From positions 1 through 59,118 of IMG/VR virus record IMGVR_UViG_2974629454_000001: a DNA stretch of 59,118 nucleotides, one strand, 5' to 3'. This document shows, piece by piece, positions 382 through 16,809 of this stretch. The translations under genes were made by a program, and so were the position numbers. The notes beneath the pieces are model-generated. The model was not told where the DNA came from. It searched no databases and worked only from the letters and a program-made list of their open reading frames with translations. Within the stretch, counting starts at the first letter, position 1. The number at the start of each line of letters is the position of its first letter. Origin of the DNA: Streptomyces virus LukeCage. Its lineage: Duplodnaviria > Heunggongvirae > Uroviricota > Caudoviricetes.

Positions 382-401
382 AAGACAGATTGATTGTGTT
401 G

Positions 402-869: not shown

Positions 870-898
870 AGTGTAACAAGGTCATTGCTCTGTGTCAA
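870..898 (-). promoter_or_regulatory. Sigma70/HrdB-type promoter with no convincing downstream ORF
   Basis: TTGACA-17-TACACT on the minus strand. Confidence 0.75.
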
Positions 899-1102
899 TC
901 ACCACTGCAATTCGTCAGTGACGTTGTAGTGCGAGACGAACGGCACGACCCAACGGGAATTCAGGAGCTTTCCCTTCTCCTCCCACAGAGTGAGAGTGCC
1001 AGTCTTGACATCGAACTCGATGCCATTGTCCATGATGCCTGTGAACTCCAGCTCCCTTCGAACACCCTCTTCGAGAACGATCACAGTCACAGTGCGAGTC
1101 AT
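899..1102 (-). CDS. Hypothetical early protein (67 aa)
   Basis: Start moved to MTRTVTV behind a GAAGGGA RBS and a promoter; host-like codon usage. Confidence 0.75.
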   Translation of the reverse strand: MTRTVTVIVLEEGVRRELEFTGIMDNGIEFDVKTGTLTLWEEKGKLLNSRWVVPFVSHYNVTDELQW

Positions 1103-1185
1103 GTTCTGTCCCTTCGTTGATACTAGTCTAACAGAGTACAAGGGAGCTGTCTACCACCGGGCCAAAATAACCGGGGCGGCCAAAA

Positions 1186-1205
1186 GCCCCCGCCTAAGCG
1201 GGGGC
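1186..1205 (-). terminator. GC hairpin after the DUF932 gene
   Basis: GCCCCCGC-CTAA-GCGGGGGC just past the stop. Confidence 0.6.
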
Positions 1206-1212
1206 CGTTGAC

Positions 1213-2214
1213 TCAGGCAGCCAGGGAGTAACCCAGGACGACCTTACGGATCTTGTTCTTCTCGGTGTTCGTGACCGGGTCGAATCCGGAAGCGGCGGCG
1301 AACAGGTTGTCCACCTCACCCTTACGCGGCATACGGTACCAGTCCTTGAACTCAGTGAAGGCGTTCAGCGCACCGGCCATGGTACCGGCCAGAGACTGAG
1401 TGGTCTTAGGACCGTCGCCCGTGTCGGTGAAGATGCCCATGTGCAGATCACGCTTGTTGTCCCACTTGACCTGAGAACCCTTGACGTTCTCCTTGGGACG
1501 CTCACCGTAGATCGCAGCGAACATCTCATCGAACTTGTCCTTCGTGCACTGCACGCGGAACAGCTCGTTCATCTCACGCTCGAACTCATCCGCGTACGTG
1601 AACGTGATGCTCAGTGCCTCACGCGCGGCGGCCATGCGACCCTCGATGGTCTGAGTGTGGCGCATCTTGAACTGCTGCTTCACACCGTTACGGAGTGCGA
1701 AGTTCAGCGTGTTCTGACACACGACACGGACCGGAGTGACGCTCACCTGAACAGCGAGAGAACCATCGTGGGAGGTGTTCACGAGCAGATACATGTTCGT
1801 GACATCCTCGTCACCGACCAGCACCTCACGACCGATACGCAGAGATCCGAAGACCTGCGTACCATCCTTGATAGAACCAGCCGTCTCCCAGACGCCACCA
1901 CCCGCAAGGATGCCGTCACCGAATGCGAACAGCTCCTCATTCTGGACGACCTTATACCGCTCCGCGACGATACCAAGGCTGTCAGCCTCACCATCGAACG
2001 GGTTGGTACGGATCACCTCGAAGGCACTCTTCTTGGCGCGACCCTTACGCTCCAACAGCTCCAACCGAACATTCCAGTCGGAAAGGTGGGCGAGTCGCAG
2101 CATCTCAGAGGTGGTGAGTTCCCCGTCGAAGACGGTGCCAAGCTGGTGCCATGCGGGCTCCAGACGAGAGGCGAACGCGACCTGACCACGGGAACCGATT
2201 TCGAGACCGTGCAT
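1213..2214 (-). CDS. DUF932-family protein (phage/plasmid-like TIGR03299 type)
   Basis: MHGLE..AWHQLG..Y.VVQN.ELF..WETAGS..G..VFG..NTSHDGS..V.VTPVRVVCQNTL..HT; AGGAG RBS before ATG 2214. Confidence 0.85.
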   Translation of the reverse strand: MHGLEIGSRGQVAFASRLEPAWHQLGTVFDGELTTSEMLRLAHLSDWNVRLELLERKGRAKKSAFEVIRTNPFDGEADSLGIVAERYKVVQNEELFAFGDGILAGGGVWETAGSIKDGTQVFGSLRIGREVLVGDEDVTNMYLLVNTSHDGSLAVQVSVTPVRVVCQNTLNFALRNGVKQQFKMRHTQTIEGRMAAAREALSITFTYADEFEREMNELFRVQCTKDKFDEMFAAIYGERPKENVKGSQVKWDNKRDLHMGIFTDTGDGPKTTQSLAGTMAGALNAFTEFKDWYRMPRKGEVDNLFAAASGFDPVTNTEKNKIRKVVLGYSLAA

Positions 2215-2423
2215 TTTTGCTCCTAGTGTAGGTGTTTCTTCTAGCTTACTTGCACGGAGACTACTTGTCAAAGTAGTCAGAGAGCACACTGTTGAGTTGA
2301 TCAAGAACAGATCATCCAAGGCTTCGGGCTTTCGCCTTCCCCCTTGCTGATAGCTCAAGTCTAACAGAGTCTAGGGTGTTGTGTCTACATGGTTCAAGGG
2401 AGATCATTTCGCCGGGGCGGCTT

Positions 2424-2443
2424 GTGGCCCCCGAAGGGGCCAC
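2424..2443 (-). terminator. GC hairpin with a UUCG loop on the transcribed strand
   Basis: GTGGCCCC-CGAA-GGGGCCAC; similar hairpins near 3318, 4932, 5393, 6016, 6305, 6785, 7314, 7767, 8560 and 9274. Confidence 0.65.
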
Positions 2444-2449
2444 CGCTAA

Positions 2450-2842
2450 TTAGGGAATCATCCCCAGAGGTTCGAACGTTCCGATAATCTCGGAATCCTT
2501 CACCGCCGCCACAGACTGATAGGTACCGGGTCGCACCTCAGACTTAGTGTCGTAGGCGACGACCATGTAACCAGCGTCGTCCAGGTCATAGCCGAAGTCA
2601 TCGAACCATTCGGCCACCTGCTCAGGAGACGTGAGAACACAGAACTCATTGGGCATGATACCGCCCGGCACATCGGTCCACGGCGTGGGGTGCGTCTCGT
2701 CGGTGTGCTCACGGCACAGACGGTTGGAAACGGACTTCACCTGCGGGTCGAAAGAGTCGAAACCCTCTCGATACGGACCGGCCCACTTACCCGTACGGTT
2801 GCCCTCATGCGTCGGGGGAAGGGCAACACGGTAAACGATCAC
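2450..2842 (-). CDS. Hypothetical early protein
   Basis: 130 aa, GTG start, GGAGG RBS, own promoter and hairpin. Confidence 0.8.
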   Translation of the reverse strand: MIVYRVALPPTHEGNRTGKWAGPYREGFDSFDPQVKSVSNRLCREHTDETHPTPWTDVPGGIMPNEFCVLTSPEQVAEWFDDFGYDLDDAGYMVVAYDTKSEVRPGTYQSVAAVKDSEIIGTFEPLGMIP

Positions 2843-2953
2843 GTTTCCTCCTAGGTTTCCCTGGTTGGTAGTCCTAGTCTAACGTAGTGTCAGCAGAGAT
2901 CGCAACACAATCAACCATGATCTTTTGACCGGGGCGGCCCGAAGGCCGCTGTG

Positions 2954-3301
2954 TCAAGTGCCCATACGAATGATCATCTGTTCGATGATGAACCGGCACA
3001 CAGAAGCTCGGTTGTATTCGTCGTCATTGCGCGTAGTACCCGCAGCTTCCTTGGCAGCCATTGCGTTAATGATTCCGATAGCCAGATCGAACAGAGGCTT
3101 TTGCAATTCCTCATGCTGGCTACACATCAGATACGCAAGGGTGTGAGCGTTGAATGTACGCTTATCGAGTACAGAGAGAATCTTGTCGGCATCCTTTTCC
3201 GCCGCGCTCCGCCGTGTAGACGTAGTACGTGCGCCCTGATAGACATCAGGAGCAATTACCGAAACCTCTGCCAGACGAAAGATATCGCCATTGCGTGCCA
3301 T
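2954..3301 (-). CDS. Hypothetical early protein
   Basis: 115 aa, GGAGG RBS. Confidence 0.8.
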   Translation of the reverse strand: MARNGDIFRLAEVSVIAPDVYQGARTTSTRRSAAEKDADKILSVLDKRTFNAHTLAYLMCSQHEELQKPLFDLAIGIINAMAAKEAAGTTRNDDEYNRASVCRFIIEQMIIRMGT

Positions 3302-3342
3302 TGTGCCTCCAATGGAACGGCCCCCTTTCGGGGGCCGTAGCC

Positions 3343-3504
3343 TTACTTGGGTTCGAAGTCTTGCGTATTCCCATATCCATCAGTTACGCTGACAGACATA
3401 CCGAGTACCGTTGCCAGGAAGGGGCCGAGAGCTTGGATCATGCTCCATGCCTGGTCTTCCTGGTCATCTCCATTGGGCTCGATTTCGAGCATCACGTTAG
3501 GCAT
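3343..3504 (-). CDS. Small acidic hypothetical protein (53 aa)
   Basis: Manually translated MPNVMLEIEPNGDDQEDQAW...DFEPK; follows the lsr2 stop and is followed by a hairpin. Confidence 0.65.
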   Translation of the reverse strand: MPNVMLEIEPNGDDQEDQAWSMIQALGPFLATVLGMSVSVTDGYGNTQDFEPK

Positions 3505-3513
3505 AGGTCTACC

Positions 3514-4026
3514 TTACTTGACCTTGACCTCTACGTCAAGACCCAGCACCACCGGGCTGCCGCAGGAACAGTGAGACAGGCTGTAACCGCACTTGCACGC
3601 CTCACGCTCGTTGAAGCGCCACACCTTGCCCTTACGGTCGACGGCCACGTACTCCGTGTTACGGCCACGGGTAGCAGGCGCAGCCGGGCGAACGTCCTTA
3701 CCGGTGGTCACCTTCACACCGGTAACAGCCGCAGCCTTGACATCCGGATTGGCCTTTGCGTACGCCTCCAGGATCTCACCGGAGATACGGCCACGGGAGT
3801 TGATCTCGATACCGTTGGCCTTAGCCCACGTGCGAACCTTCTTAGCGTCGTAGGCACCAGCCTTGACAGCAGCGGGCTTGTTGGTACGCACCACGCCAGT
3901 GTCAGCGAAGACGGTACCCGCAGCCTCAGCAGCCTTGATCGCCTCGTTTGCTGCCACACTCATTCGACCACGCTTGCCCATCTCAGCGAGACCGAGGGAA
4001 GCGGCGTACTCACGGCGAGTCTGCAT
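3514..4026 (-). CDS. lsr2: Lsr2-like DNA-binding protein
   Basis: VRTWAKANGIEINSRGRISGEILEAY matches the Lsr2 C-terminal RGR AT-hook domain; second degenerate copy at the N-terminus; Cys cluster at the C-terminus. Confidence 0.85.
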   Translation of the reverse strand: MQTRREYAASLGLAEMGKRGRMSVAANEAIKAAEAAGTVFADTGVVRTNKPAAVKAGAYDAKKVRTWAKANGIEINSRGRISGEILEAYAKANPDVKAAAVTGVKVTTGKDVRPAAPATRGRNTEYVAVDRKGKVWRFNEREACKCGYSLSHCSCGSPVVLGLDVEVKVK

Positions 4027-4137
4027 TTGGTTCCTTCCGTTGTCCTTCGTTGTACCTTAAGCATAACAGAGCAAGGGGGACGGGGCAACATGAAATTATG
4101 TCCGGTTTGTCTCGCCGCCCCGGCCCGAAGGCCCGCA

Positions 4138-4860
4138 CTATTTCTTAGTGCGAGAGAACCGGATATCAGCCTTACCGAAGATACACAGGCCGCACGTTAC
4201 GCACGCGCCACCCTTTTCGGTAATCAGAGGAATCTGCTTAGCATTCTCGGGACACTTTCCACCGGGAACACCAGTCAGAGTTTCGAAGATCTCTTTGCCC
4301 TCGTTGAAGGTTTCTCCCAGATATGCCATTTTGACACCGGGATTGTCAGCCGCGCAAAGAAGCCCGGCGTTAAGGTTTTCCTTGTCTACACTAAGGTAGA
4401 CAGCCATGTTGGGGAATCCGTAGATGCATTCCACGTACTGGAATGAACGGGTGTAAATCCAGAATTGCACATCAGGGTGGTGATAGACCACATAGTTGAT
4501 GGCAATTGCATATTCCTCGGAGAAGATATCCCCGTCAGCGTGCCAACGGAAATACTTAGGCACGTTGTACTTTTCGCACTCCGCCTCGAATTCATCGATC
4601 ATCTGCGTCAGGAGCTTGACCATTACGCCATAAGGCGCATCCTTAAGCAATTCCCAGTTGTGCATAGCAACAGCAAGGAATGCGGGATACTGCTTTTCGA
4701 TCCTACCGGCATAGCAGATGCTCTCACATACACCGGTCGCACCGGGACAAGAGAACGCCTTACCGGACGGCAGAGAGAATGCGTTTTTGATGAGCGACTG
4801 CTTACCCGCAGTGTTGGCTCGGACGGTGGTCTTGCGGTCGTTCGTTCGCTTGAGTCCCAT
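4138..4860 (-). CDS. GP88-like (radical-SAM-like fold) protein
   Basis: FSLP..CPGATGVCESICYA and YFRWHADGDIF motifs; apparently leaderless (TAGGAT-6nt-ATG). Confidence 0.7.
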   Translation of the reverse strand: MGLKRTNDRKTTVRANTAGKQSLIKNAFSLPSGKAFSCPGATGVCESICYAGRIEKQYPAFLAVAMHNWELLKDAPYGVMVKLLTQMIDEFEAECEKYNVPKYFRWHADGDIFSEEYAIAINYVVYHHPDVQFWIYTRSFQYVECIYGFPNMAVYLSVDKENLNAGLLCAADNPGVKMAYLGETFNEGKEIFETLTGVPGGKCPENAKQIPLITEKGGACVTCGLCIFGKADIRFSRTKK

Positions 4861-4963
4861 GGATTCATCCTAGCAGACGTAAGAGAGAGAATCAACATGC
4901 TTGAGTCAAGATCTTTTGACCGCCCCGGCCAAACGGCCCCCGAAGGGGCCGTTGGCTTTCTGA

Positions 4964-5128
4964 TTACTTGGGAGCGACCTCGAAGTCGTCCAGGCCGAGC
5001 GCGATGGTCTCGAACTCGGTACCCATGTTGTCGGTCATCTCGGCGACGATGTTGCGAACGAGGGCGACACGCACGGTGGCGGTCATGGGGGTCTCGGCGA
5101 TGACCTTGGCGATGGCGAGAGCCTTCAT
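4964..5128 (-). CDS. Small hypothetical protein (54 aa)
   Basis: Manually translated MKALAIAKVIAETP...FEVAPK; strong GC3 bias, own promoter, hairpin after the stop. Confidence 0.75.
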   Translation of the reverse strand: MKALAIAKVIAETPMTATVRVALVRNIVAEMTDNMGTEFETIALGLDDFEVAPK

Positions 5129-5183
5129 TTTGGAGCCTTTCGTCGTGGTGTGTTCTTAGTCTAGCGGATGGAACTTGGTTTGT

Positions 5184-5282
5184 CTACTCGCAGTCGACCA
5201 GAATTTCCATGTCGTCCAGGTGAGCGTCGGCACCGTAGGTGTCGTCCTGCTCGTCCTCAATCTTGGCAAGGGTGACAGCCAT
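5184..5282 (-). CDS. 32-aa highly acidic peptide
   Basis: MAVTLAKIEDEQDDTYGADAHLDDMEILVDCE; GAGAGGTGG RBS, own promoter. Confidence 0.65.
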   Translation of the reverse strand: MAVTLAKIEDEQDDTYGADAHLDDMEILVDCE

Positions 5283-5414
5283 CTCAACCACCTCTCTGGG
5301 AGGTTTCCCTCCCTTTCGATGTCTCTAGTCTAACAGACGTAAGCGATGATGTACAACGGGTTCTCAGCATGATCTTTTGACCGGGGCGGTTCGCGCCCCG
5401 AAGGGCGCTAGCCG

Positions 5415-5909
5415 TTAGCGAGGGTTACAGATTCCGCAGTCCCAGCCACAACCGTAACTGTCGTAGCTGTAGCTGTTCTCGTAGCTCAGACGCGCAGCCT
5501 CTTCGGCCTTCTCGATCTTCTTGACCTCCGCGTCGATCATGTCCTTCGCGTCCTTGAGGCTGAGGAACGGGAAGTCGTTGCGGAGACGCTTGATGCACGT
5601 GATCTTGTAGAGCTTGCCGATCTCCTTGACGATCTTCGGAGCGGCCTCACGCGCCTGGTTGTAAGCGAAGTCCTCGATTCCACGCAGACGAACCAGCTCG
5701 CTCTTTTCGAGCGTCAGACCCTCGTTCTTGAGCTGGATCTGACCCGCGACCTTACCGGCCTCGTACCCGTCCGTGTAGCTCTTGTCGGATGCCGCGAGAA
5801 GGGTCATGTCGTGGTAGTTCTTGATCCTGTCAGCCACGTCCATGGCCTGCGTGAAGCCCATCTCCACACCCTCGTCGAGGAAGATCTTCAAAACGTCCAG
5901 GGCGTCCAT
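5415..5909 (-). CDS. Protein with a ribosomal L7/L12 C-terminal-like motif
   Basis: KITCIKRLRNDFPFLSLKDAKDMID resembles the bL12 CTD motif K..VIK.VR..TGLGLKEAK.LV. Confidence 0.65.
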   Translation of the reverse strand: MDALDVLKIFLDEGVEMGFTQAMDVADRIKNYHDMTLLAASDKSYTDGYEAGKVAGQIQLKNEGLTLEKSELVRLRGIEDFAYNQAREAAPKIVKEIGKLYKITCIKRLRNDFPFLSLKDAKDMIDAEVKKIEKAEEAARLSYENSYSYDSYGCGWDCGICNPR

Positions 5910-6039
5910 GTGTTCCTCTCTTAGAGGGAGTGTCCCTCTTTGATGTCTCTACTATAGCAAGGAAAGGGGACCGGATGCAACACAGTCCACGAAGATCTTT
6001 TCGCCGGGGCGGCTAGGCCGCCCGAAGGCGGCCCGCTGC

Positions 6040-6228
6040 TCAGTATGCGATGTTGAGCTGGAGGTGATCCACCTTCTCGAAGTTGATCACATGGACACCA
6101 CCGTCAGTGCTCTCGATGAGAGCGACCTTACTGTACAGCTTCTCCTGAACGGCTTCCACGTTACCCTTCGCACGGAACTTGACGGGCTGGTCGCGGTCGC
6201 TGTAGTAGACGGTGACGTGAGTGTTCAC
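6040..6228 (-). CDS. Hypothetical early protein
   Basis: 62 aa, GGGAGG RBS, GTG start, own promoter. Confidence 0.75.
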   Translation of the reverse strand: MNTHVTVYYSDRDQPVKFRAKGNVEAVQEKLYSKVALIESTDGGVHVINFEKVDHLQLNIAY

Positions 6229-6329
6229 TTTGCCTCCCGGCCTCGTTGATAGCTCTAGTCTACATGAACAGAGTCAGGATTACAACCCCGAACCGGGGCG
6301 GCTAGAGGGGCCGAAGCCCCTCCGCCTTT

Positions 6330-6689
6330 CTACCGACGACCCATGGGAAAACCCTTACGCGCTGCCTCCCTTTCCAGCTCCCATCCGTTGTTCGTCTCGC
6401 TGGGGTGAACGTATTCGATTTCCTTGATGCCCAGCAGATAGGCGACGAGCAGACGGTGATGACCGTTGGTCACACGGTTACGCTCAGGGCTGTACACGAT
6501 GGGCGTTTTGATGCCTTCCTTCTCGATGCTCTCGATGAACGCACGGGGCAGCTCATCGAACTTAGCGAGCATGCACTTTTCCTTGTCGTCCATGTAGCGG
6601 GAACCGTAGTTGCCCGTACGAGAGTCGGAAGCGTCTCCGAAGATCGCATCGTGCCAGAGCTTTTCCACGTTCGCCTGGGGCATCTTCAC
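6330..6689 (-). CDS. ParB/sulfiredoxin N-terminal domain protein
   Basis: SIEKEGIKTPIV..VTNGHHRLL.A.LLG matches the ParB-N signature; no room for an HTH. Confidence 0.75.
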   Translation of the reverse strand: MKMPQANVEKLWHDAIFGDASDSRTGNYGSRYMDDKEKCMLAKFDELPRAFIESIEKEGIKTPIVYSPERNRVTNGHHRLLVAYLLGIKEIEYVHPSETNNGWELEREAARKGFPMGRR

Positions 6690-6809
6690 TCCAAGTTTTC
6701 TCGCCCTGTTGGTAGTTATAGTCTAACGGATGATGTGATGGGGAGTCAACTCAACCCATCAAGATTTTTAGCCGGGGCGGCTAGGCCGCCCGAAGGCGGC
6801 CCGCCATGA

Positions 6810-6953
6810 TCAGACCCAGTTCCAGCCGAGGTGAAGAAGGGCACCGACGATCATGATCAGAAAGGCACTGACACCAGCATTGACGAGAAAGAGCAGAACA
6901 GCCTGCGGGCCGGTGCAGTTGGAAGCGGTGATCGGACCCTTGACGTTGTACAT
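6810..6953 (-). CDS. Small membrane protein (47 aa)
   Basis: Manually translated; AGGAG RBS; long hydrophobic segment AVLLFLVNAGVSAFLIMIVGALL. Confidence 0.65.
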   Translation of the reverse strand: MYNVKGPITASNCTGPQAVLLFLVNAGVSAFLIMIVGALLHLGWNWV

Positions 6954-6960
6954 GTCACTC

Positions 6961-7077
6961 CTAGAGAAAGGCGAAGAGCACAGTCTTTGCTGTCCACAAG
7001 CCTAGCATAAGTAGGCCGATCAGGAAAGGTATGAGAACTAGTAGTCCTGCACACCCGACGATCTTTATCAGACCCAC
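6961..7077 (-). CDS. Possible small membrane peptide (38 aa)
   Basis: GTG start overlapping the upstream gene; hydrophobic; no clear RBS; codon usage less host-like. Confidence 0.4.
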   Translation of the reverse strand: MGLIKIVGCAGLLVLIPFLIGLLMLGLWTAKTVLFAFL

Positions 7078-7226
7078 TCAAGGGGGTCGTAGTCGAAGAT
7101 GTCACGGTGATCACGGTAGCGATCTGCACGCTGCCTCTTGATCTCACCGAGCTTCTTGATTTCCTTGACGCGCTTGGTCTGCGCCAGGTATCGCTCGTTC
7201 CGCAGCCTACGAAGATCTTCTCGCAT
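7068..7226 (-). CDS. Small basic hypothetical protein (52 aa)
   Basis: MREDLRRLRNERY...DYDPLEWV; GAAGGGA RBS, own promoter. Confidence 0.7.
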   Translation of the reverse strand: MREDLRRLRNERYLAQTKRVKEIKKLGEIKRQRADRYRDHRDIFDYDPLEWV

Positions 7227-7337
7227 TTCGTTCCCTTCGTTGTGTCTCTAGTATATACAGAGGTGGGAGGGAAGCGCAACATAGATCTTCAAGATCTTTT
7301 CGCCGGGGCGGCTTGCGCCCCGAAGGGCGCAGCCTTA

Positions 7338-7676
7338 TCAGTCTCGGATGTTCATGACCTCACGGTAGAACCGAAGGTAGGCATCCGCAGCGTCCTCGGC
7401 ATCCTCCAAAGACTCGTAGTCACCGAATCCGTCAAGAGTGGTCATGGTGAACGCTCCCTCTTCGTTGCGGGAAGCGTAGCGGAGGCTGTACGACTTGTCT
7501 TCCGGGTCCGATCGGTATTCGGAAGTGATGAAGATCGATCCGCGCTGACCGATGGGGAAAACGTTCGGCTGGAGTTCCGTGTTGAAGAACTCCATAGACC
7601 CCTTCGTGAACCAGTGTCGGGCGGTGGAGTTGGACTCACGGGACGCCTTGACGATCTGGTGCATCGTGGAGAACAT
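7338..7676 (-). CDS. Hypothetical early protein
   Basis: 112 aa, GAGAGG RBS, own promoter and hairpin. Confidence 0.8.
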   Translation of the reverse strand: MFSTMHQIVKASRESNSTARHWFTKGSMEFFNTELQPNVFPIGQRGSIFITSEYRSDPEDKSYSLRYASRNEEGAFTMTTLDGFGDYESLEDAEDAADAYLRFYREVMNIRD

Positions 7677-7788
7677 TTACGTTCCTCTCGCTCGGTGTAA
7701 GACGAGTCTAACACACTCATAGGACAGAACACAAGCCCTCTAGCAAATCAGCCGGGGCGGCCAAACGGCCCCCGAAGGGGCCAGATGA

Positions 7789-7899
7789 CTAGCGACCTTG
7801 CTTCAAGATCGCATCGATGCCATAGAGGAGAATGATTCCCAGTCCGATGGTGTATGAACCGCTGATTACCGAGAGGTACAGAATCATGATCGCTTCCAT
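7789..7899 (-). CDS. Small membrane peptide (36 aa)
   Basis: TGATG coupling with the upstream gene; MEAIMILYLSVISGSYTIGLGIILLYGIDAILKQGR. Confidence 0.55.
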   Translation of the reverse strand: MEAIMILYLSVISGSYTIGLGIILLYGIDAILKQGR

Positions 7900-8165
7900 C
7901 AGAGAACCGGCTTCTTGCCGAGTCCCATGCTCTTGCCGAAGTCGTAGGACTTGCCCTTGACCTCGTATCCCGGAAGAACCTTGGTCACACGGAACGGAGC
8001 GGCACGGTGGAGGGCGGACAGCTTCTCAGCAGAACCCGCAGCCTCGACGTAGACCTTACCGGAACGCTCGTTGACTCGGTACTCGAACTCCACTCCGTAC
8101 ACGGTGGCCATCGTGATGACGACACCAGCGCGCTTGACGGAAACCTCGCCCATGAGAACGGCCAT
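7899..8165 (-). CDS. Hypothetical early protein
   Basis: 88 aa, GAAAGG RBS, own promoter. Confidence 0.8.
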   Translation of the reverse strand: MAVLMGEVSVKRAGVVITMATVYGVEFEYRVNERSGKVYVEAAGSAEKLSALHRAAPFRVTKVLPGYEVKGKSYDFGKSMGLGKKPVL

Positions 8166-8199
8166 TGTATTGCCTTTCGTTCGGTGTTACTAGAGTCTA

Positions 8200-8478
8200 T
8201 CAGATGCGGTGGACGTTGTCACGCAGTTCGTTGAACGTGTGCGGACTGGTGACGATCTCAGCGTTGCGGTAAAACCCGTGATCCACAAGGACCGTTACCG
8301 AGTTATACACAACGTTCTGTACCGTTCCAGTGTACGCGATCTTGCCGTCAATTTCAAGGCCCTCGTTCAGATAAAGCTGAGCCCAACTGTTGACGACTAC
8401 GACCCTGTCACCCGTACGGAGCTTGCCGAAGTTGCTTTGCAGATACTTGCGAATCCTGTAGCTGAGAGGCATCGCCAT
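8200..8478 (-). CDS. Hypothetical early protein
   Basis: 92 aa, GGGAGAG RBS, own promoter. Confidence 0.75.
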   Translation of the reverse strand: MAMPLSYRIRKYLQSNFGKLRTGDRVVVVNSWAQLYLNEGLEIDGKIAYTGTVQNVVYNSVTVLVDHGFYRNAEIVTSPHTFNELRDNVHRI

Positions 8479-8588
8479 GATCTCTCCCCTTCGTTAAGAC
8501 GAGTCTACATGACGCCGGGCGAGATTGCAACACTTTTTCAAAAAAGCCGGGGCGGCCAAACGGCCCCCGAAGGGGCCGTTGGCTTTGA

Positions 8589-9161
8589 TCAGCCGTTCAT
8601 GCCGCATCCGCACGGGCAAGAACCCTGGAAGGACTCTTCGGAGGACTCGATGGACTCGCGGGCCACGTCGTTCGTCGTCAGCTTCTCACGCAGCGCATTG
8701 AGCGCGGACTGAGTGGCCAACTCGGGCTCGGGCTTCGGGGAGTCCTTCTCGACCTGCTCGATCTTGTCCCATTCGAGCTGATCGGTGGTCCCGACCGGCG
8801 TGATCATGTCCACGATGGACTTCGCCTCGATGAGACCCAGCGGACGGAACTTGTCACGCAGAACCTTGATGCAGGTGATCTTGCGGGTGAAGTCACGCGG
8901 CGTGAAGTTCGCCACGGCCCACGCAGTTGCGGAAACCACGTTCGGGTCGAAGGTGGCACGAATGGAGTTCTTGCCAGCCTCCACACCAGCGTCGTAGCGC
9001 TCCTGACCGTACGCGTACTTCGCGTCCTCGGCCTTGTACTTCTCGTCTTCCATCTTGCGACGGAAGCCACGGTCGATGTCACCCGCGAAGCGGAGAGCGT
9101 CAGCGATCTTGGTGTCGGGGAAGTAGTTGCCGACCTGCTGAACGATCTCGATGCGCTCCAT
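8589..9161 (-). CDS. Second protein with an L7/L12 C-terminal-like motif
   Basis: KITCIKVLRDKFRPLGLIEAKSIVD; also shares a Y..GYEAGK/YDAGVEAGK segment with 5415-5909. Confidence 0.65.
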   Translation of the reverse strand: MERIEIVQQVGNYFPDTKIADALRFAGDIDRGFRRKMEDEKYKAEDAKYAYGQERYDAGVEAGKNSIRATFDPNVVSATAWAVANFTPRDFTRKITCIKVLRDKFRPLGLIEAKSIVDMITPVGTTDQLEWDKIEQVEKDSPKPEPELATQSALNALREKLTTNDVARESIESSEESFQGSCPCGCGMNG

Positions 9162-9296
9162 GAGGTTTCCCTTCGTCTTAGGGGACTTCTTGCCCCCTTC
9201 GATGTACTAATCTTAGCAGAGCCTAGCGGGCTGTGTCCAACTGTTCTTTCAAGATTTTTTGGCCGGGGCGGTTCGCCGCCCGAAGGCGGCTAGCCG

Positions 9297-9593
9297 TTAC
9301 TCCCAAGGTGAGTAGTCAGACTCACGCTCGGCAGGCTTACGCTCGATACGGTCAAGGTAGCGGCCGGTGCTGTTGACGGACCAAATGGCCCTACGCCCGT
9401 TGTTGCTGTAACGCTTCTTGGTCAGCCTCTTGAGAACGGTCTCAGCCTCACGACGAGAGCGAACCTTGACAGACACGCAGGGCTCACGGTAGTTGTAGTA
9501 CCATCCGCCCTCTTCCGGACCACCGCACGCGAGGTCTTCGAGATAGATGTTGGCGTAGAACGGCTTGGGCTTACGAACCTTGGGCGTCTTCAT
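9297..9593 (-). CDS. Hypothetical basic early protein, leaderless
   Basis: Start moved to MKTPKV, 7 nt after a TAGACT -10. Confidence 0.75.
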   Translation of the reverse strand: MKTPKVRKPKPFYANIYLEDLACGGPEEGGWYYNYREPCVSVKVRSRREAETVLKRLTKKRYSNNGRRAIWSVNSTGRYLDRIERKPAERESDYSPWE

Positions 9594-9671
9594 AGGGATG
9601 AGTCTAGCAGAGTATTGGGCCGGTGGCAACAGATTCTCAATTTAGCCGGGGCGGCCCCGAAGGGCCTGACG

Positions 9672-9902
9672 TTACCGCCAGAGGAATTGACCTTGACATG
9701 CACAGTCGTTGGGAACCTTGTCTACCTTCTTGAAAGCACGAATGATCGTCTCTCGCGGGTAGACAGCTCGCAGGCACTCACGAGGGTTGTGGTGACCTAC
9801 CTTGATCCACTGGTCTACGACTTCCACATAGAGGAAAGTCTGTTCGTGTCCGGTCTGCTTCTCTTGCTGAACGTAGACTTCGCCCTCAGAGATCCATTCC
9901 AT
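9672..9902 (-). CDS. Hypothetical protein (76 aa)
   Basis: Start moved to MEWISEG, coupled to the upstream gene by TGATG. Confidence 0.7.
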   Translation of the reverse strand: MEWISEGEVYVQQEKQTGHEQTFLYVEVVDQWIKVGHHNPRECLRAVYPRETIIRAFKKVDKVPNDCACQGQFLWR

Positions 9903-10057
9903 CACACACTCCTGGTCTTGATCTTCTCGCACTTCACGCACTTGCGAACCTGCATGGGCTGAGTCCACGTGACAGGCTTACCCTTGATCCAACCCATAAG
10001 AGGGCTGTCCATGTGAGCAGTGACGAGAACCCACTTCGTCCACTTGTGACGGCACAT
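9902..10057 (-). CDS. Small Zn-ribbon-like protein (51 aa)
   Basis: Manually translated MCRHKW...RKCVKCEKIKTRSV; TAATG and TGATG overlaps on both sides. Confidence 0.7.
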   Translation of the reverse strand: MCRHKWTKWVLVTAHMDSPLMGWIKGKPVTWTQPMQVRKCVKCEKIKTRSV

Positions 10058-10260
10058 TACGAAAGCCTCCCACAGATGCACTTGATCTTGTCGCCGGGTT
10101 CCATGTACGTCTCGATGGTGTACTGCGGGATCATCATCGTGGTGCAGTCGTCGTCGCTCGTGTGGATCACGATGAACGCCTGATCACTGATCAGATCGAT
10201 GATCTCCGTGCGGCAGTTCGGGTCGGACTTCTTCGGCTGCATGATGTCTCCGGGCTTCAT
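10057..10260 (-). CDS. Hypothetical protein, leaderless
   Basis: 67 aa; ATG 6 nt after TAGACT. Confidence 0.75.
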   Translation of the reverse strand: MKPGDIMQPKKSDPNCRTEIIDLISDQAFIVIHTSDDDCTTMMIPQYTIETYMEPGDKIKCICGRLS

Positions 10261-10459
10261 GTATGAAGTCTAGCACTCGGATTGGATGAGATGCAAGCCC
10301 TACGCCGATTTTTTAGTCTCTAGATGTCTACACAGATTTTTAGTCATCTAGCCGGGGCGGCTAACTTTTTAGTCAGAAAATCACCCCTATGATTCGAAGG
10401 TTTTTCGCGCATATACCTAAGAAACACAGGGGTGAAAATCTAAGCGAATTTATTCAGAT

Positions 10460-10684
10460 TCACCAGAGTTCGTCCACTTTGGCCCAGAATCGGTGGACTC
10501 GCGGATCGTTGTTGTCGTTTGCGTAGAACGGATCATGAATTGTGCCCGTCAACGCATTTGCGATTTCGGGCCGGTGGACAGCAACTCGATTGAATACGAA
10601 TTGCCCATAACGCTGCCCCTTGTTGTCGCGCATCCATTCTGCGATGGTATCGAGAATGAATTGATTCAAGGACAGTTCGGCCAT
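10460..10684 (-). CDS. Hypothetical protein
   Basis: Start moved to MAELSLNQF just after the upstream stop. Confidence 0.65.
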   Translation of the reverse strand: MAELSLNQFILDTIAEWMRDNKGQRYGQFVFNRVAVHRPEIANALTGTIHDPFYANDNNDPRVHRFWAKVDELW

Positions 10685-10688
10685 TAAG

Positions 10689-10940
10689 TCACTTCCAATC
10701 GGTGGGAAGTTCGCCAGATTCGATGATGTTCTTTTCCATTCGCTCGAAAACGACCTTTGCCCCGATGAAAGAGGCAATCAGCTTGTTTCCTTGCGCAGTC
10801 ATCGACCTTTCGAGCAACATTCGCAATTCTTCGAGATCCTTTTGCAGTTGCTGCTCAACATACATAGGTTTCACCCTTTCCAGTTCCACAAAGGCAATAT
10901 ACGGAATGCTTTGCTTCCACCGGGCGAAATCCGCCTTCAT
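10689..10940 (-). CDS. Hypothetical protein
   Basis: 83-aa helical ORF; start uncertain. Confidence 0.55.
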   Translation of the reverse strand: MKADFARWKQSIPYIAFVELERVKPMYVEQQLQKDLEELRMLLERSMTAQGNKLIASFIGAKVVFERMEKNIIESGELPTDWK

Positions 10941-11124
10941 TGTACTTTTTCAGAAGGATTTCGAGATTTCCCGAAGAAATTACGCCCGTTTCGGAAAACA
11001 GGCCGTTCTTTTCGAGCTTGAGGGTAAGCGAATGTGTACGAACGGCTTTTGCCCTATTCCTGAACATTGCTTTCCCTTTCTACCCCTAATGGGGGATACC
11101 CTTTCGGATATCCCCCATATTGAG

Positions 11125-11328
11125 TTACGCCAGTTCGGAAACGTGCGGATAGTCGGTTTCGTCCATGTCCACCGTACGCATGTCGTCCTGTACGGTAGAT
11201 ACGGGCAGGGTGCTCACAGAGACCCATCCCTCAGAGACGGCCCGCTCCAGAAGTTCGAGAGTGGTCAAGTTGATCAGTCCCTTCCGTCTTGGTGTAGTAC
11301 CAGTATACACAGCCCATACGCTGTGCAC
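11125..11328 (-). CDS. Hypothetical protein
   Basis: 67 aa, GTG start, plausible codon usage. Confidence 0.5.
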   Translation of the reverse strand: MHSVWAVYTGTTPRRKGLINLTTLELLERAVSEGWVSVSTLPVSTVQDDMRTVDMDETDYPHVSELA

Positions 11329-11442
11329 AACCTAGATCCTCCGGGAAATTTTTGTACGCTTTCGTACACGCGCGGGGGATTTGTCCGGGAATTCCGTAAT
11401 GCCCTCTTAAAGAGGAATGCCCCCTATGCGCTGCATGCCCAG

Positions 11443-11516
11443 TGTGTACCCATATGGTAGGGTATGTACCCTATGTACCATATGCCCTATATGTACCCCT
11501 ATGTACCAGTATGTCC
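11443..11516. repeat. TATGTACC tandem repeat cluster
   Basis: Exact copies at 11463, 11472, 11490 and 11500 plus degenerate ones. Confidence 0.75.
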
Positions 11517-11645
11517 GATTTGTCCGGCCGCCCCGGTCGGCAATCCTTTACCAAGCCGTTACCTAAAAACCTCGGATTCAGGGGTTTTCCCGTGTGTGGT
11601 GGGGTAGTCTGTAGGTACAACGACAGAGACAAGGGAGACAGCGAC

Positions 11646-12104
11646 ATGATCACCACCACCGCCCCGGTTACCCACAACAGCAACACTCACCAGTGCAGGG
11701 ACAACGACCGTACGGCCGGTAGCGCGTACCGTAGGCAGCTTCTCGCTACGGTCCTGTACCTGGCTAGCCTTACGGGGCACTCGGACGGTGAGACGTACGC
11801 TGTGTGTGTGGGTTGTGGTGAGAATGCATACGTGGGGGGTGCACCCCGGAACATGGACACGCTGAACCTTGGTCACTGTGAGGCAGACGCAACGGGGGGT
11901 ACCTACTGCGCTGCGAACATGCTCCCCCTGTGCAGGCAGTGCAACGAGGACATGGGTAAGGATGCCCTTACCGATGTGCTTGTCCCCCTGTATGACAACC
12001 GTCACATGTGGGACGGTAAGTTGATCAAGGACAGTGGCAAGGTTAAGCAGGAAGCGCAGGCAAACCGAGGACGTGCCAACTGGAAGCGCCCTGCGAGCGT
12101 CTGA
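11646..12104 (+). CDS. HNH endonuclease
   Basis: CVGCG..LNLGH....GG....NMLPLCRQCN; AAGGGAG RBS; the only rightward gene I found in the left arm. Confidence 0.75.
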   Translation: MITTTAPVTHNSNTHQCRDNDRTAGSAYRRQLLATVLYLASLTGHSDGETYAVCVGCGENAYVGGAPRNMDTLNLGHCEADATGGTYCAANMLPLCRQCNEDMGKDALTDVLVPLYDNRHMWDGKLIKDSGKVKQEAQANRGRANWKRPASV

Positions 12105-12119
12105 GACGCTTTGAGAGTA

Positions 12120-12150
12120 GCCCCTAGGTCTGAGTACCTAGGGGCACTTT
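12120..12150 (+). terminator. Intrinsic terminator after the HNH gene
   Basis: GCCCCTAGGT-6nt-ACCTAGGGGC-ACTTT. Confidence 0.7.
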
Positions 12151-12347
12151 CATGCCCGGAGACGGGCGCACACGGCTTTTGAAAGCCGTTTTCAAATGGC
12201 CTGCCATGCCCTGTGGAACCTTCCCCGGAGAGAATGTCAAGGGATATGGGCGCACTAATTGAATTGTTACAAAGGTATGCGAAGCATGTATCGTACATGA
12301 TAGAAAATTACTAACATTTCAAAATCAGAAATAGATGATCTTGTATG

Positions 12348-13751: not shown

Positions 13752-13911
13752 TTAGGTTCTCGATCTCTGCGTCTAGTCTCTTTACTTCTCTTTCGGCACG
13801 CTTAGCGCCTACTTGATCACCGGCCCGCTTTGCCTTTTCCATTGCTCGGGCCGCGTCTCTGCGCTGCTCTCTAAGGTTATTGAGCGCACGTCTCATGCCT
13901 AGCTCAGCCAT
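13744..13911 (-). CDS. Small basic helical protein
   Basis: Start at MAELGMRR (alternative start 13929). Confidence 0.65.
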   Translation of the reverse strand: MAELGMRRALNNLREQRRDAARAMEKAKRAGDQVGAKRAEREVKRLDAEIENLSG

Positions 13912-14065
13912 TTTCTGCCAACCAATCATGCATCGCCTTGATTATGTCTGACTGCTTAGTAGCCTCTGCGTGATTCTTTTCTCTACGAGCACGCATGTAA
14001 GACTTCTGAGCAGCCTCAAGTATTCGATTAGCTTCCTTCAAATTCTTTGGTCTAGGAACCGCCAC
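13904..14065 (-). CDS. Small basic hypothetical protein (53 aa)
   Basis: Manually translated; AAGGAG RBS, GTG start. Confidence 0.65.
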   Translation of the reverse strand: MAVPRPKNLKEANRILEAAQKSYMRARREKNHAEATKQSDIIKAMHDWLAENG

Positions 14066-14080
14066 GATCACTCCTTGGGT

Positions 14081-14503
14081 GTGACACTTTTGTCACGTCG
14101 TCTTGTTATGTCACTAGAGTGTCACACCCTTTGTCACTTGTCAAGGTGACATTCGTGACAGAGCAACAGTAATCGTATTGGCCGGAATGTCACGACCCTT
14201 AATGTCACTGATGATCTTTCTTAGCTCAGCTTTGTCACGAGTTCCATCATCCCACAGCTCCTTGACCAGGCGTGACACGCTCTTTTGCTTGTCATCTGTC
14301 ATGTCACGACGTGGAATTTCTGTCATTTTTGTCACGATAGGCGTGACAGATACATCTTCCTTGACAACCGTGTCACTCTTTGTCATGACAGGCTTTGTCA
14401 CGGTTTTGTCATCTGTTTTGTCACGATTATTTCGTGACATTTTCTTAGGTGTCACCGGCTTGTCACGCTTGCGTGACAGACTTTCACCTGTCACGGTTGT
14501 CAC
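14081..14503. repeat. Dense array of 23 TGTCAC/GTGACA hexamers
   Basis: Exact copies at 14081, 14091, 14109, 14120, 14132, 14146, 14155, 14188, 14203, 14233, 14272, 14302, 14330, 14343, 14371, 14396, 14419, 14434, 14450, 14461, 14473, 14489 and 14498, plus several TGTCAT/TGTCAA variants. Confidence 0.92.
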
Positions 14504-15025
14504 GACTTCATTGAGCCGGAAGAATACGACGTTCTTGAATCCCTTGAATGTCTTCCCTGGGAAGATCATCCAGCTTACCTTTCCGAAGACTGGCATTCGC
14601 TTAGCGACCAGTCCGTTGGCTCGCATCTCTGAACGGTGCACAAAGCGCAGGTACAATTCGAACAATACACCTGCGATAACTGGAGGGGCACCGAAAAGAA
14701 CTTTTCCAGGAGTCCCGTAGTTAAGCAGCGCTGCGTGCTCTACGTTCAGATATACAGAGGTTCCTACAAAGGCGTATGTGGCCAGCTTCGGAGCCAGACC
14801 ACTATCTTCTGTTCTAGCGTACTTGGATGCAAGGTCAGCGACAAACAAAGCAGCACCGTCGAATGCAATACTCACTCCGAAAGCCAGTTCCTTGGGAACT
14901 CCATAGAATTCCACAGCCATTGAATATAGGCTCCACCAACTCAAAGCGAGAGCAACGATCAGCACTGATCCGAATGAAACTGCGCCACGCCAATCCATAA
15001 GACGCTGGAAGTCGGGCTTTTTCAT
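14141..15025 (-). CDS. DUF2637/SpdB-like four-TM membrane protein with a C-terminal putative DNA-binding domain
   Basis: Start moved to MKKPDF (AAGGAG RBS); four hydrophobic helices with ALALSW.SL and AFDGAAL motifs; T/K/D/R-rich linker; helical C-terminus. Confidence 0.75.
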   Translation of the reverse strand: MKKPDFQRLMDWRGAVSFGSVLIVALALSWWSLYSMAVEFYGVPKELAFGVSIAFDGAALFVADLASKYARTEDSGLAPKLATYAFVGTSVYLNVEHAALLNYGTPGKVLFGAPPVIAGVLFELYLRFVHRSEMRANGLVAKRMPVFGKVSWMIFPGKTFKGFKNVVFFRLNEVVTTVTGESLSRKRDKPVTPKKMSRNNRDKTDDKTVTKPVMTKSDTVVKEDVSVTPIVTKMTEIPRRDMTDDKQKSVSRLVKELWDDGTRDKAELRKIISDIKGRDIPANTITVALSRMSP

Positions 15026-15041: not shown

Positions 15042-15075
15042 AAAAGGCAGGGCACCCTTTTGGGTGCCCTGCTAT
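15042..15075 (-). terminator. Intrinsic terminator after dps
   Basis: GCAGGGCACCC-TTTT-GGGTGCCCTGC, with a T-run on the minus strand. Confidence 0.7.
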
Positions 15076-15083
15076 TCAGTTGT

Positions 15084-15485
15084 TTATCTTGATGACTCTG
15101 TAAACATCCAAAGCCACTTATCGACGCCGCGCTTAATTTCGATGAGTACATCTTGCGTAGCGAGGTCGTCGGTAATATTAAAGATAGCACCTGAGAGAAC
15201 CATTGTCAAGCTCTCAAGAGAGGACTTCACTCCGCTTACTGCTTGCAGATAGGAAACTGACTCGCCTGAGAATTCATAGGCGATCTTTGGTGCAAGATAC
15301 ATCTCTCTTGCACGTGCTCTCTCTGCGAGAGTGTCGGCGTATTCTGTAATATCCTCGTTAAGTTCATCTAGCTTCTCGTGAAGATAGAAAAACTCCTTAC
15401 CTCGGAGATTCCAATGGTTCTCCTTGACTGCCAAGGAGAGGGTTAGCAACCATTCCAGAATCTCTTCCAGCTTTTGCTCTAGCAC
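15084..15485 (-). CDS. dps: Dps/ferritin-like protein
   Basis: HWNLRGKEFFYLHEKLDE...D.LAER and D.AT.DVL.EI.RGVDKWLWM. Confidence 0.85.
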   Translation of the reverse strand: MLEQKLEEILEWLLTLSLAVKENHWNLRGKEFFYLHEKLDELNEDITEYADTLAERARAREMYLAPKIAYEFSGESVSYLQAVSGVKSSLESLTMVLSGAIFNITDDLATQDVLIEIKRGVDKWLWMFTESSR

Positions 15486-15696
15486 GCTCCACCTCCTTGA
15501 TCGCAGATTTGATTTGATGATGCATCTCTAATCCTGGTTTGATGTACTTGTCATCAATTGGACACCAGAGATATAGGTCGGAAGATGCATCAAGCTTGGT
15601 GCGGACTATTAAATTGTTCTGACAGTCTGGGCACTCTAGCGCCGGGACAATTCCCTCTCTCGCTAGCCGACTGTATTTATGAAAATCTGACCACAT
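15397..15696 (-). CDS. Zn-ribbon hypothetical protein, leaderless
   Basis: CPDC..WCPIDD; ATG 6 nt after TAGACT; its 3' end overlaps dps by 89 bp. Confidence 0.6.
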   Translation of the reverse strand: MWSDFHKYSRLAREGIVPALECPDCQNNLIVRTKLDASSDLYLWCPIDDKYIKPGLEMHHQIKSAIKEVERARAKAGRDSGMVANPLLGSQGEPLESPR

Positions 15697-16329: not shown

Positions 16330-16809
16330 TCAGAGCTTCCACCAGGCTCGTCTACGACGACGACGGACTTTTCTTTGCGGTACTACTGACAGTATACACA
16401 CTAGTGCAGACATCGTCAATATAGCCGCTGGAGCACTGAAATAATACAAGAGTCCAGCGATTGCAAATGCAGTCAGTCGGAACTTCCATAGCGGAGTTAC
16501 AGTGACAAGACCTGGCCTTCGTGGGGCTGGCTTTGTGCTACCTGCAAATCTTGCACCTTTGCTTTGGTTGCAGCGAAGGTGGGCAAGTGCCACATTTCCC
16601 CAAACATGACCCGGAGAATCCTTCCTCCAACTAAGAGGAACAATATGATCAAGAGACGGGGACTTAGGATGTGGATACTTCAATGACTTGCGCACGCGCT
16701 TGCCACAAAGATGACACTTCCAGCCAGACTGTTGATATACTGCTGGTCGGGTAATGGTTGGATCATATGGAACGCCGTACTCCCTACAACGATCCTCATC
16801 TGTTTTCAT
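16330..16809 (-). CDS. HNH endonuclease with a C-terminal transmembrane segment
   Basis: CHLCG..SLDHIVP....GH..GNVALAHLRCNQSKG followed by a hydrophobic stretch and poly-Arg; leaderless (TTGTGA-17-TATGAT-6-ATG). Confidence 0.85.
   Translation of the reverse strand: MKTDEDRCREYGVPYDPTITRPAVYQQSGWKCHLCGKRVRKSLKYPHPKSPSLDHIVPLSWRKDSPGHVWGNVALAHLRCNQSKGARFAGSTKPAPRRPGLVTVTPLWKFRLTAFAIAGLLYYFSAPAAILTMSALVCILSVVPQRKVRRRRRRAWWKL

Follow-up and report, generated by a model that had tools for sequence, protein, structure and literature searches.

A conserved TGTCAC array within the gene of a phage DUF2637 membrane protein is a candidate docking site for the protein encoded by the same gene

The window analyzed here comprises the first 59,118 bases of the 133,195-bp genome of Streptomyces virus LukeCage, a Streptomyces phage of the BE cluster (Karimacvirus). 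A gene for a DUF2637 membrane protein of 294 amino acids (14141..15025, minus strand; ATG at 15025 and stop codon at 14141–14143 in the open reading frame (ORF) list) carries in its 3' part, which encodes a linker and a small C-terminal domain, a dense array of the hexamer TGTCAC/GTGACA (array 1). The array exists, is conserved and is under selection at the DNA level, and its word changes between lineages together with the protein. Based on these observations and on structure predictions, we propose that the TGTCAC(G) array is the cis docking site of the protein produced from the same gene, which would thereby act as a self-addressed membrane tether for the element's own DNA; we put the chances of this proposal at even.

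Array 1 extends over 14081..14503 and comprises, by word count, 23 exact copies on both strands (16 TGTCAC on the plus strand and 7 GTGACA), interspersed with TGTCAT and TGTCAA variants. Of the 53 TGTCAC/GTGACA copies in the whole window, 23 are located in these 423 bp, where 0.21 copies are expected from the rate of 0.505 per kb in the genome outside its two arrays (Poisson P ~1e-38). This recount agrees with the first-pass annotation of the sequence, which had reported 23 hexamers in 423 bp against about 0.2 expected, in both orientations and several frames. The copies do not form a tandem unit and are irregularly spaced by 9–39 bp. The 7-mer TGTCACG is present in 15 of the 23 copies, and G occupies this position in 24 of 36 copies over both arrays, in which no further flanking conservation around TGTCAC(G) was detected. 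Eighteen copies are located in the coding sequence, with 5, 12, and 1 copies in frames 0, 1, and 2, respectively, and encode VT, RD(K/I/M), (L/M/V)SR, SD, and SVT. The earlier description of the hexamers as encoding VT, RD, and SR dipeptides in a linker was correct as to the dipeptides, but six in-gene copies are located in the part (14146–14277) that encodes the folded C-terminal domain instead. Five copies, starting at 14081, 14091, 14109, 14120, and 14132, are outside the coding sequence, between its stop codon and the next gene (14081..14137), as had also been noted.

To obtain a null distribution, the protein was synonymously recoded 5000 times with the phage's own codon usage. The recoded genes contained 2.3±1.4 copies, with a maximum of 8 in 5000, versus 18 observed in the coding sequence. 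The excess is visible in codon choice: all five Arg-Asp pairs are encoded as CGTGACA, all four Ser-Arg pairs as TGTCACG, and five of six Val-Thr pairs as GTGACA. Selection on the array therefore acts on the DNA and not on the protein, as claimed from the first inspection, because the copies in the coding sequence far exceed the recoded number, others follow the stop codon, and a second array lies entirely between genes. Furthermore, the use of both orientations, the occasional palindromic pairs, and the copies outside ORFs indicate that double-stranded DNA rather than RNA is selected.

The region around the DUF2637 gene shares 94.8% identity with StarPlatinum, a Streptomyces phage of actinophage cluster BE (Stanwilliamsviridae, Karimacvirus), whose annotated gene 32 encodes a product with 97% amino acid identity, and 82–88% identity with about 30 further BE-cluster Streptomyces phages among the matches listed. 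BE phages are virulent and have a GC content of ~49%, ~40 tRNA genes, and terminal repeats of 11–12 kb (PMC10690885). TGTCAC is the top hexamer of the 3' part of the gene in all 18 BE-type relatives sampled (12–26 copies; protein identity 51–97%), and the flanks of 14 IMG/VR loci contain 0–6 copies (flank of ~8.3 kb in twelve loci). The recoding null was exceeded in Jay2Jay, Tomas, MulchMansion, and one metagenomic relative. When the sites were mapped on the alignment, few positions were fixed, namely at the conserved VTxVTG entry of the linker and inside the C-terminal domain. Linker sites turn over between relatives while their density stays high, which fits selection for the number of sites and not for their exact place. 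BE phages outside Karimacvirus (loci L013, L014, L025–L034, and L053) possess two words per in-gene array, TGTCAC and TGTCC(T/C), the latter in 9–21 copies.

Several more distant homologs of the gene have arrays built from different words. In the satellite Mulchroom (35% identity), the corresponding gene part contains 17 TGTCGT and lacks TGTCAC, which occurs twice in the 14.8 kb of the satellite; phage Kromp (26% identity) has 20–21 TGTCCG, two of them past the stop codon. Plasmid NZ_CP108353 (L038) contains 34 GAGCGC, 21 of them as TGAGCGC, and plasmid NZ_CP107756 (L039) contains 28 GGTCTC in the gene and 6 just past the stop codon; a weaker array is found in pNO33, with 9 TGTGCCG and more downstream, past the stop codon. 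These arrays occupy the homologous gene part in several frames and both orientations, and each is above its recoding null, which was exceeded in all ten further tests beside the window gene. The replicons of Kromp, NZ_CP108353, and NZ_CP107756 contain no cluster of the respective word other than the in-gene array, and no cluster of Mulchroom's word was found in its helper, MulchMansion. A search of genome contigs with the family alignment found no relative. The word thus changes between lineages along with the C-terminal domain. These results bear out the check suggested in the first-pass annotation, namely whether homologs have repeat arrays of their own and whether the repeat co-varies with that domain. 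Lineages differ in the genes that follow the arrays, which are unrelated even among BE phages; with unrelated neighbors from lineage to lineage, the arrays have the DUF2637 protein as their sole constant partner.

The encoded protein matches Pfam DUF2637 (PF10935) over residues 23–165 (30 bits versus a cut-off of 22.8; E 5.6e-7). Most homologs carry a precomputed PF10935 assignment, the whole-protein family is PHROG 10376, of unknown function, and an NCBIfam search of the protein gave no match. An AlphaFold model built on 32 homologs predicts a membrane domain at residues 6–136 (14618..15010, minus strand) composed of four long helices (6–40, 45–69, 77–100, and 105–136; predicted local distance difference test (pLDDT) 73–86), with two further helices at 147–179, and a three-helix bundle at the C-terminus, in agreement with the four transmembrane helices and helical C-terminal domain recognized initially. 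The segment after helix 4 contains 7 Lys and Arg and no Asp or Glu. By the positive-inside rule, both termini are predicted to be cytoplasmic, which would place the linker and the C-terminal domain in the cytoplasm as well. The charged linker (residues 172–242; 14300..14512, minus strand; 16 Lys and Arg, 11 Asp and Glu) is predicted to be disordered (pLDDT <50) and differs greatly in sequence and length among homologs; its coding DNA is the densest part of array 1.

The C-terminal domain (residues 243–294; 14144..14299, minus strand) is modeled as three helices with a pLDDT of 87 for the domain alone and is the candidate reader of the array. Foldseek with this domain returned nothing at E<=0.001, whereas the top rows of an exhaustive VIA structure search were helix-turn-helix (HTH) domains with Z 4.5–6.5, below the tool's caution level for a shared fold. 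The best row was a small-terminase N-domain (Z 6.5), followed by ArgR, the mariner and Tc3 transposases, KorB, GcrA, Tn3 resolvase, and Lrp/AsnC, and the top rows of Foldseek and VIA were mostly tri-helical DNA-binding domains. No Pfam HTH match was obtained on the domain itself, and comparison of its sequence with solved structures gave chance-level rows only. An exhaustive profile search located the domain in 12 representative clusters of 1.84 billion proteins, mostly of the same family, and also reached two soluble proteins of 105 amino acids and protein P0081 (four matched stretches), which is confidently built of HTH_7/HTH_23/HTH_28 repeats; in hhalign, the domain aligned to P0081 with a probability of 33% over 20 columns. 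Given that the structural and profile matches are modest, we regard the domain as likely, but not proven, to be HTH-like. Within the BE phages, helix 3 varies with the word: the T-V-A/S-L type of Karimacvirus pairs with TGTCAC(G) and 0–1 TGTCC, and the (S/N)-K-A-V type of Tomas, Samistivirus, and two metagenomic lineages pairs with 9–21 extra TGTCC sites.

A genome-wide search for TGTCACG located a second, purely intergenic array outside the window. Array 2 consists of 13 TGTCAC/GTGACA in 136 bp (genome 78619–78754; L010:2120–2255) and includes the palindrome TGTCACGTGACA; in the whole genome, no other 500-bp bin contains four or more copies of the hexamer. In this genome, the array is therefore not unique to the DUF2637 gene. 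The related idea of a one-gene module does not apply here because of array 2, but it fits Kromp and the two plasmids, where the in-gene array is the only cluster. Array 2 begins immediately past a terminator-like hairpin that follows a DUF3307 membrane-protein gene and is itself succeeded by a stretch of 72% GC, a promoter-like TTGACA-N17-TAAGGT, and the AT-rich leader of the next gene. It is also present in StarPlatinum and Yaboi; Bartholomune (Samistivirus) has a mixed array of TGTCAC, TGTCCT, and TGTCAT at the same spot, and array 2 is absent from Tomas. The genome further encodes a TraB/FtsK-like ATPase of 603 amino acids (genome 74514–76325, outside the window; L048:515–2326), annotated as an FtsK-like translocase in StarPlatinum, with a transmembrane segment near residues 93–135, the P-loop AAPGGGKS, and a possible C-terminal winged helix. 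Pfam recognizes the enzyme only weakly (AAA_22, E 4e-4; FtsK_SpoIIIE (PF01580), E 0.09). Array 2 lies 2.3 kb downstream of the ATPase gene, and the DUF2637 gene is about 60 kb from it.

In the proposed mechanism, the four-helix DUF2637 domain may seat the protein in the cytoplasmic membrane with both ends in the cytoplasm, where a flexible linker of ~70 residues would carry the small HTH-type domain. This domain could recognize individual half-sites of 7 bp irrespective of their orientation and despite their irregular spacing; that the protein's own C-terminal domain is the reader seems to us slightly better than an even bet. The many sites, together with a probably oligomeric membrane protein, may provide high avidity, so that the phage DNA would be held at the membrane at array 1 and, in this genus, also at array 2 (~78.6 kb). 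Because the sites lie within the gene itself, a protein inserted co-translationally would start next to its target and could load in cis. Since each element has a private word, a co-infecting helper and satellite would each tether their own DNA only. Membrane tethering is thus the presumed outcome. Its likeliest purposes may be the handing of DNA to membrane-bound machinery, such as the phage's TraB/FtsK-like pump for movement between hyphal compartments, or the organization of replication at the membrane, with regulation as another option. A wider proposal, which we hold to be rather doubtful, is that DUF2637-HTH proteins with in-gene arrays form a family of self-addressed systems by which the mobile DNA of actinomycetes docks at the membrane, each element having a private word and a matching reader; in satellites that lack a replicase, such a system could recruit helper machinery to satellite DNA, and in BE phages, together with the TraB-like pump, it could move genomes between compartments without virions.

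Several observations weigh against the docking proposal. The co-variation of word and domain is based on about six independent lineages or word classes, and the correlation of helix 3 with the word within BE phages represents a single evolutionary event. Six of the sampled homolog lineages with the domain architecture contain no in-gene array (Wakanda and BillNye, Keanu, plasmid L040, and the metagenomic homologs L051 and L052). Among these, the C-terminal domain of Wakanda resembles that of Mulchroom, yet Wakanda has no array, and Mulchroom-like satellites integrated in Streptomyces chromosomes show only loose RGACA runs. The HTH assignment draws on weak matches (no Foldseek row at E<=0.001, VIA Z 6.5, and hhalign 33%). 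The genome also encodes the TraB/FtsK-like ATPase with its probable C-terminal winged helix, a known class of short-repeat reader, and the word is close to the half-site of the plasmid element sps, whose known reader, SpdA, has a different DNA-binding domain.

The ATPase gives rise to a serious rival, because pumps of this type read arrays of 8-bp words (PMC4170104): the arrays could be clt-like loading sites for the translocase, whose winged helix would read the word, with the DUF2637 protein as a mere membrane partner. The features of the 603-amino acid enzyme in BE phages, the short distance between its gene and array 2, the ATPase homolog in plasmid NZ_CP108353 (E 4.5e-9 with the phage protein as query), and the interaction of the plasmid membrane protein SpdB2 with TraB (PMC4447253) are all in line with such a role. 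On the other hand, when the phage ATPase served as query, in a search only weakly sensitive to divergent TraB, three elements with strong arrays (Mulchroom, Kromp, and the L039 plasmid) gave no ATPase homolog. The phage ATPase itself was used as the query because PF01580 misses the phage's own annotated FtsK-like gene, so that PF01580 searches of Mulchroom, Kromp, Wakanda, and the plasmids are uninformative. The helper's pump is not expected to read the satellite's word, since that word differs from the helper's and has no cluster in the helper. Moreover, the arrays are always in the DUF2637 gene and not at the ATPase gene, and in L051 a TrwB/TraB-like ATPase is encoded beside a DUF2637 gene without an array. 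We consider this rival unlikely, and a similar judgment applies to an iteron-type origin or replication-organizing site in the linker-coding part of its own binder, in the style of lambda O and its origin, with the membrane protein nucleating replication, both for the phage and for satellites devoid of replication genes. The position of the repeats within the linker-coding part of the presumed binder's gene recalls the lambda O architecture, and the private words per element recall Rep-iteron specificity. The Mulch and Flayer satellites have no recognizable replication genes, and a "predicted membrane protein", the one discussed here, is among the few genes common to both (PMC10690885). A stretch of 24–32% GC follows array 2, but it coincides with the conserved promoter-like element and the start of the next gene. 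No AT-rich unwinding element flanks array 1, where GC is 45–47% across and beside the array. Pfam and other family searches found no replication-initiator, helicase-loader, or primase domain in the DUF2637 protein, and the cumulative GC skew, with its minimum at 18 kb and its maximum at 120–121 kb, tracks the blocks of transcription and shows no signal at either array.

Transcriptional control is a still less probable role. In that case, the arrays would be operator clusters, bound by the DUF2637 protein or another phage regulator, for autoregulation or a roadblock and for control of the 55-amino acid gene next to array 1 and of the promoter after array 2. In favor of this role, the 69-bp spacer ahead of the 55-amino acid gene is packed with five copies, array 2 is ~100 bp upstream of the promoter-like TTGACA-N17-TAAGGT that Bartholomune keeps, and GTGACA is one base off the -35 hexamer TTGACA, with several weak matches of a promoter scan inside array 1. 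However, 20–35 sites across 400–700 bp of coding DNA are far beyond the need of an operator, the Kromp and plasmid arrays are essentially limited to the coding region, the downstream genes differ by lineage, and no convincing promoter was found in the spacer. A reader encoded elsewhere, either a host protein or an SpdA-type protein of resident plasmids, is improbable. It would account for the GTCACG that TGTCACG shares with sps (CGTCACGTGACG), for the common Ser-Arg and Arg-Asp dipeptides, and for the sps-like palindrome in array 2; however, one host reader does not fit words that are wholly different among elements of the same host genus (TGTCGT, TGTCCG, TGAGCGC, and GGTCTC), and neither tblastn (best E 0.4) nor a zinc-ribbon pattern revealed an SpdA-like protein in the phage. 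Least probable by far is the absence of any DNA function, with the repeats as a by-product of replication slippage or of the linker, which is of low complexity and rich in V, T, R, D, S, and K. Against this stand the recoding tests, the spread of copies over both orientations and three frames, their presence beyond the stop codon, within the part encoding a folded domain, and in an intergenic second array, and the irregular spacing without a tandem unit.

If the protein reads the array, the two would make up a compact, orthogonal DNA-to-membrane addressing system. The array system is kept in about a hundred sequenced BE-cluster phages, and other words occur in a phage satellite and in plasmids. 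The docking proposal, if true, would offer a handle on how large lytic Streptomyces phages organize or move DNA in a multigenomic, septated mycelium, a subject on which the spread of phage DNA by SpdB-like phage proteins has been published as a suggestion only (PMC4447253). It would likewise offer a handle on how satellites without a replicase (PMC10690885) have their DNA handled apart from that of the helper. It would also bear on why Streptomyces mobile elements often place binding sites in the reader's own gene, as in SpdA/sps and TraB/clt. Private words would be useful as orthogonal DNA-tethering parts. In addition, the pattern illustrates how strongly the sequence of a disordered linker in a protein can be molded by a signal in the DNA.

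The DUF2637 gene lies among ThyX, small proteins of no assigned function, and a ferritin/Dps-like gene, with no tra/spd operon. The genome has direct terminal repeats of 12,291 bp, the left copy of which occupies window positions 1–12291; array 1 sits 1.8 kb inside the inner boundary of this repeat, and the gene points toward it. The homologous gene of Mulchroom is likewise aimed at the right terminal repeat, 0.9 kb off, although these are two cases and may reflect chance. Downstream of the DUF2637 stop codon and separated from it by the 69-bp spacer is the gene of 55 amino acids (13904..14071, minus strand; GTG start, AAGGAG ribosome-binding site). By BLASTP, the products encoded at the counterpart position in Tomas/Jay2Jay, Mulchroom, Kromp, and the two plasmids are unrelated, and given this lack of conservation between lineages, the 55-amino acid gene was rejected as an unlikely source of the array reader. 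Upstream, a strong terminator-like hairpin (15047..15072, minus strand; 11 pairs, 9 of them G-C, with a T tail) separates the DUF2637 gene from the ferritin/Dps-like gene (15084–15485, minus strand; Pfam Ferritin, E 1.4e-9), which is annotated as "DNA binding protein" in relatives. Hairpins of inverted array copies, listed on the plus strand, were rejected as terminators because the genes are on the minus strand, where no T tail is present. ORFs on the opposite strand across array 1, such as 14178–14720 on the plus strand, were taken as by-products of the stop-free repeat.

Farther upstream, an ORF of 99 amino acids with CPDC...C spacing (15397–15696, minus strand) overlaps the 5' end of the ferritin-like gene in a stretch that is unannotated in StarPlatinum, and it may or may not be a gene. 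An HNH endonuclease ORF (16330–16809, minus strand) has a C-terminal tail that is hydrophobic and then strongly basic (RRRRRRAWWKL); HNH genes are common in this genome region among relatives. The settings of the homologous genes are diverse. Integrated elements of ~13 kb in Streptomyces chromosomes and metagenomes (L018:3324–16089, L019, L020, L036, and L037) are laid out like Mulchroom, in the order integrase, HTH regulator, Lsr2-like, DUF2637, terminase, portal, scaffold, and capsid, and adjoin PspA and peptidase M48 genes in two genomes. NZ_CP108353 and NZ_CP107756, which have the densest arrays seen, are circular 93-kb Streptomyces "plasmids" with phage-like neighbors encoding an HNH endonuclease, a ParB-N domain, and NUDIX. 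In L051 (1442–4858 of a 93-kb metagenomic contig), the array-less DUF2637 gene follows two genes after a TrwB/TraB-like ATPase of 745 amino acids, a plasmid-type arrangement.

Among known systems, the DNA sites most resemble sps, the 12-bp palindrome CGTCACGTGACG that is bound by SpdA2 and occurs in 2–3 copies inside the spdA coding region, where it encodes SRD(D/E), in the plasmids pIJ101, pSN22, pJV1, and pSVH1 (Thoma et al. 2014, PMC4170104). In pIJ101, the analysis located the two copies of sps and the SpdA2 ORF of 135 amino acids. SpdA is reported to act together with the membrane protein SpdB2 (PMC4447253). As in the phage, where the reader is a candidate, a DNA-binding protein of a Streptomyces mobile element is associated with specific sites within its own gene, and GTCACG is common to TGTCACG and the sps half-site, with the same Ser-Arg and Arg-Asp pairs encoded by both. 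The phage genome contains no exact sps; one variant, TGTCACGTGACA, is present in array 2, and GTCACG occurs in 15 of the 23 array-1 copies. An SpdA-like protein was not found in the phage by tblastn of pIJ101 SpdA2 (best E 0.4) or by a six-frame search for a zinc-ribbon pattern of the CxxC...C...CRQRAY type. Furthermore, sps consists of two or three full 12-bp palindromes, whereas the phage-type arrays consist of 20–35 half-sites, and sps is conserved across plasmids, whereas the array word differs between DUF2637 lineages. SpdA2 is small and soluble and has a CxxC domain of the zinc-ribbon type at its N-terminus; in contrast, the phage candidate reader is a three-helix domain fused to a four-transmembrane domain.

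In the conjugative plasmids of Streptomyces, TraB reads 8-bp TRS repeats in clt (as summarized in PMC4170104). The phage arrays are similar in that a short, element-specific word is repeated for a membrane-associated DNA-handling reader, here a candidate, and the phage also encodes a TraB/FtsK-like ATPase. In pSVH1, the clt array is located at or near the 3' end of the gene of its reader, TraB. In contrast, the phage-type arrays are in the DUF2637 gene and not in the ATPase gene, their sites are more numerous and in both orientations, and they occur in elements without a detectable TraB homolog.

SpdB2 of pSVH1 is an oligomeric, pore-forming membrane protein with four transmembrane segments that binds double-stranded DNA non-specifically, binds peptidoglycan, and interacts with TraB (Thoma et al. 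2015, PMC4447253). The phage protein likewise belongs to a Streptomyces mobile element, has four predicted transmembrane helices, and is a candidate DNA binder. However, no cognate array has been described for the non-specific SpdB2, which is encoded in a tra/spd operon, whereas early phage genes surround the DUF2637 gene, with the TraB-like gene ~60 kb away. The designation "SpdB-like" in the first-pass annotation is not supported as homology: pIJ101 SpdB, the characterized SpdB that was compared, shows no similarity to the DUF2637 protein (no Pfam hit at E<=0.1, BLASTP E>=2, hhalign probability 1.4%), no DUF2637 hit was obtained in pIJ101, and phiC31, cited in the literature as having an SpdB2 homologue, gave no DUF2637 match.

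Other comparisons are more remote. The resemblance of the hexamer to the matS half-site, pointed out at the outset, is incidental, and a MatP/matS link was rejected, since GTGAC-N3-GTCAC is absent from the whole 133-kb genome and no site of the type of the 13-bp matS palindrome GTGACRNYGTCAC was found anywhere in it; sps is the closer match. The DUF2637 protein has no ParB family match, and the sites are 7-bp half-sites, in contrast to the 16-bp parS palindrome. Binding sites inside the reader's own gene are known from lambda O with its origin, where they lie in the part encoding a flexible linker, and from Spo0J and parS of B. subtilis. These comprise four iterons or one parS, versus 23 copies here, and their readers are soluble proteins with known replication or partition partners. 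The phi29 protein p16.7, an early membrane protein, binds DNA through its cytoplasmic domain and keeps replicating phage DNA attached to the membrane; it differs in having a single transmembrane helix, no sequence specificity, and no cognate array. A literature search for the word in the context of Streptomyces phages gave incidental matches only, and no description or test of such an array was found in the literature searched. The array would fit within the known pattern, in Streptomyces mobile elements, of binding sites in the reader's own gene. By analogy, the phage protein may work like a fusion of two plasmid functions, a membrane anchor and a site-specific reader with in-gene sites; comparison with pIJ101 SpdA2 and SpdB gave no support for membership in either family.

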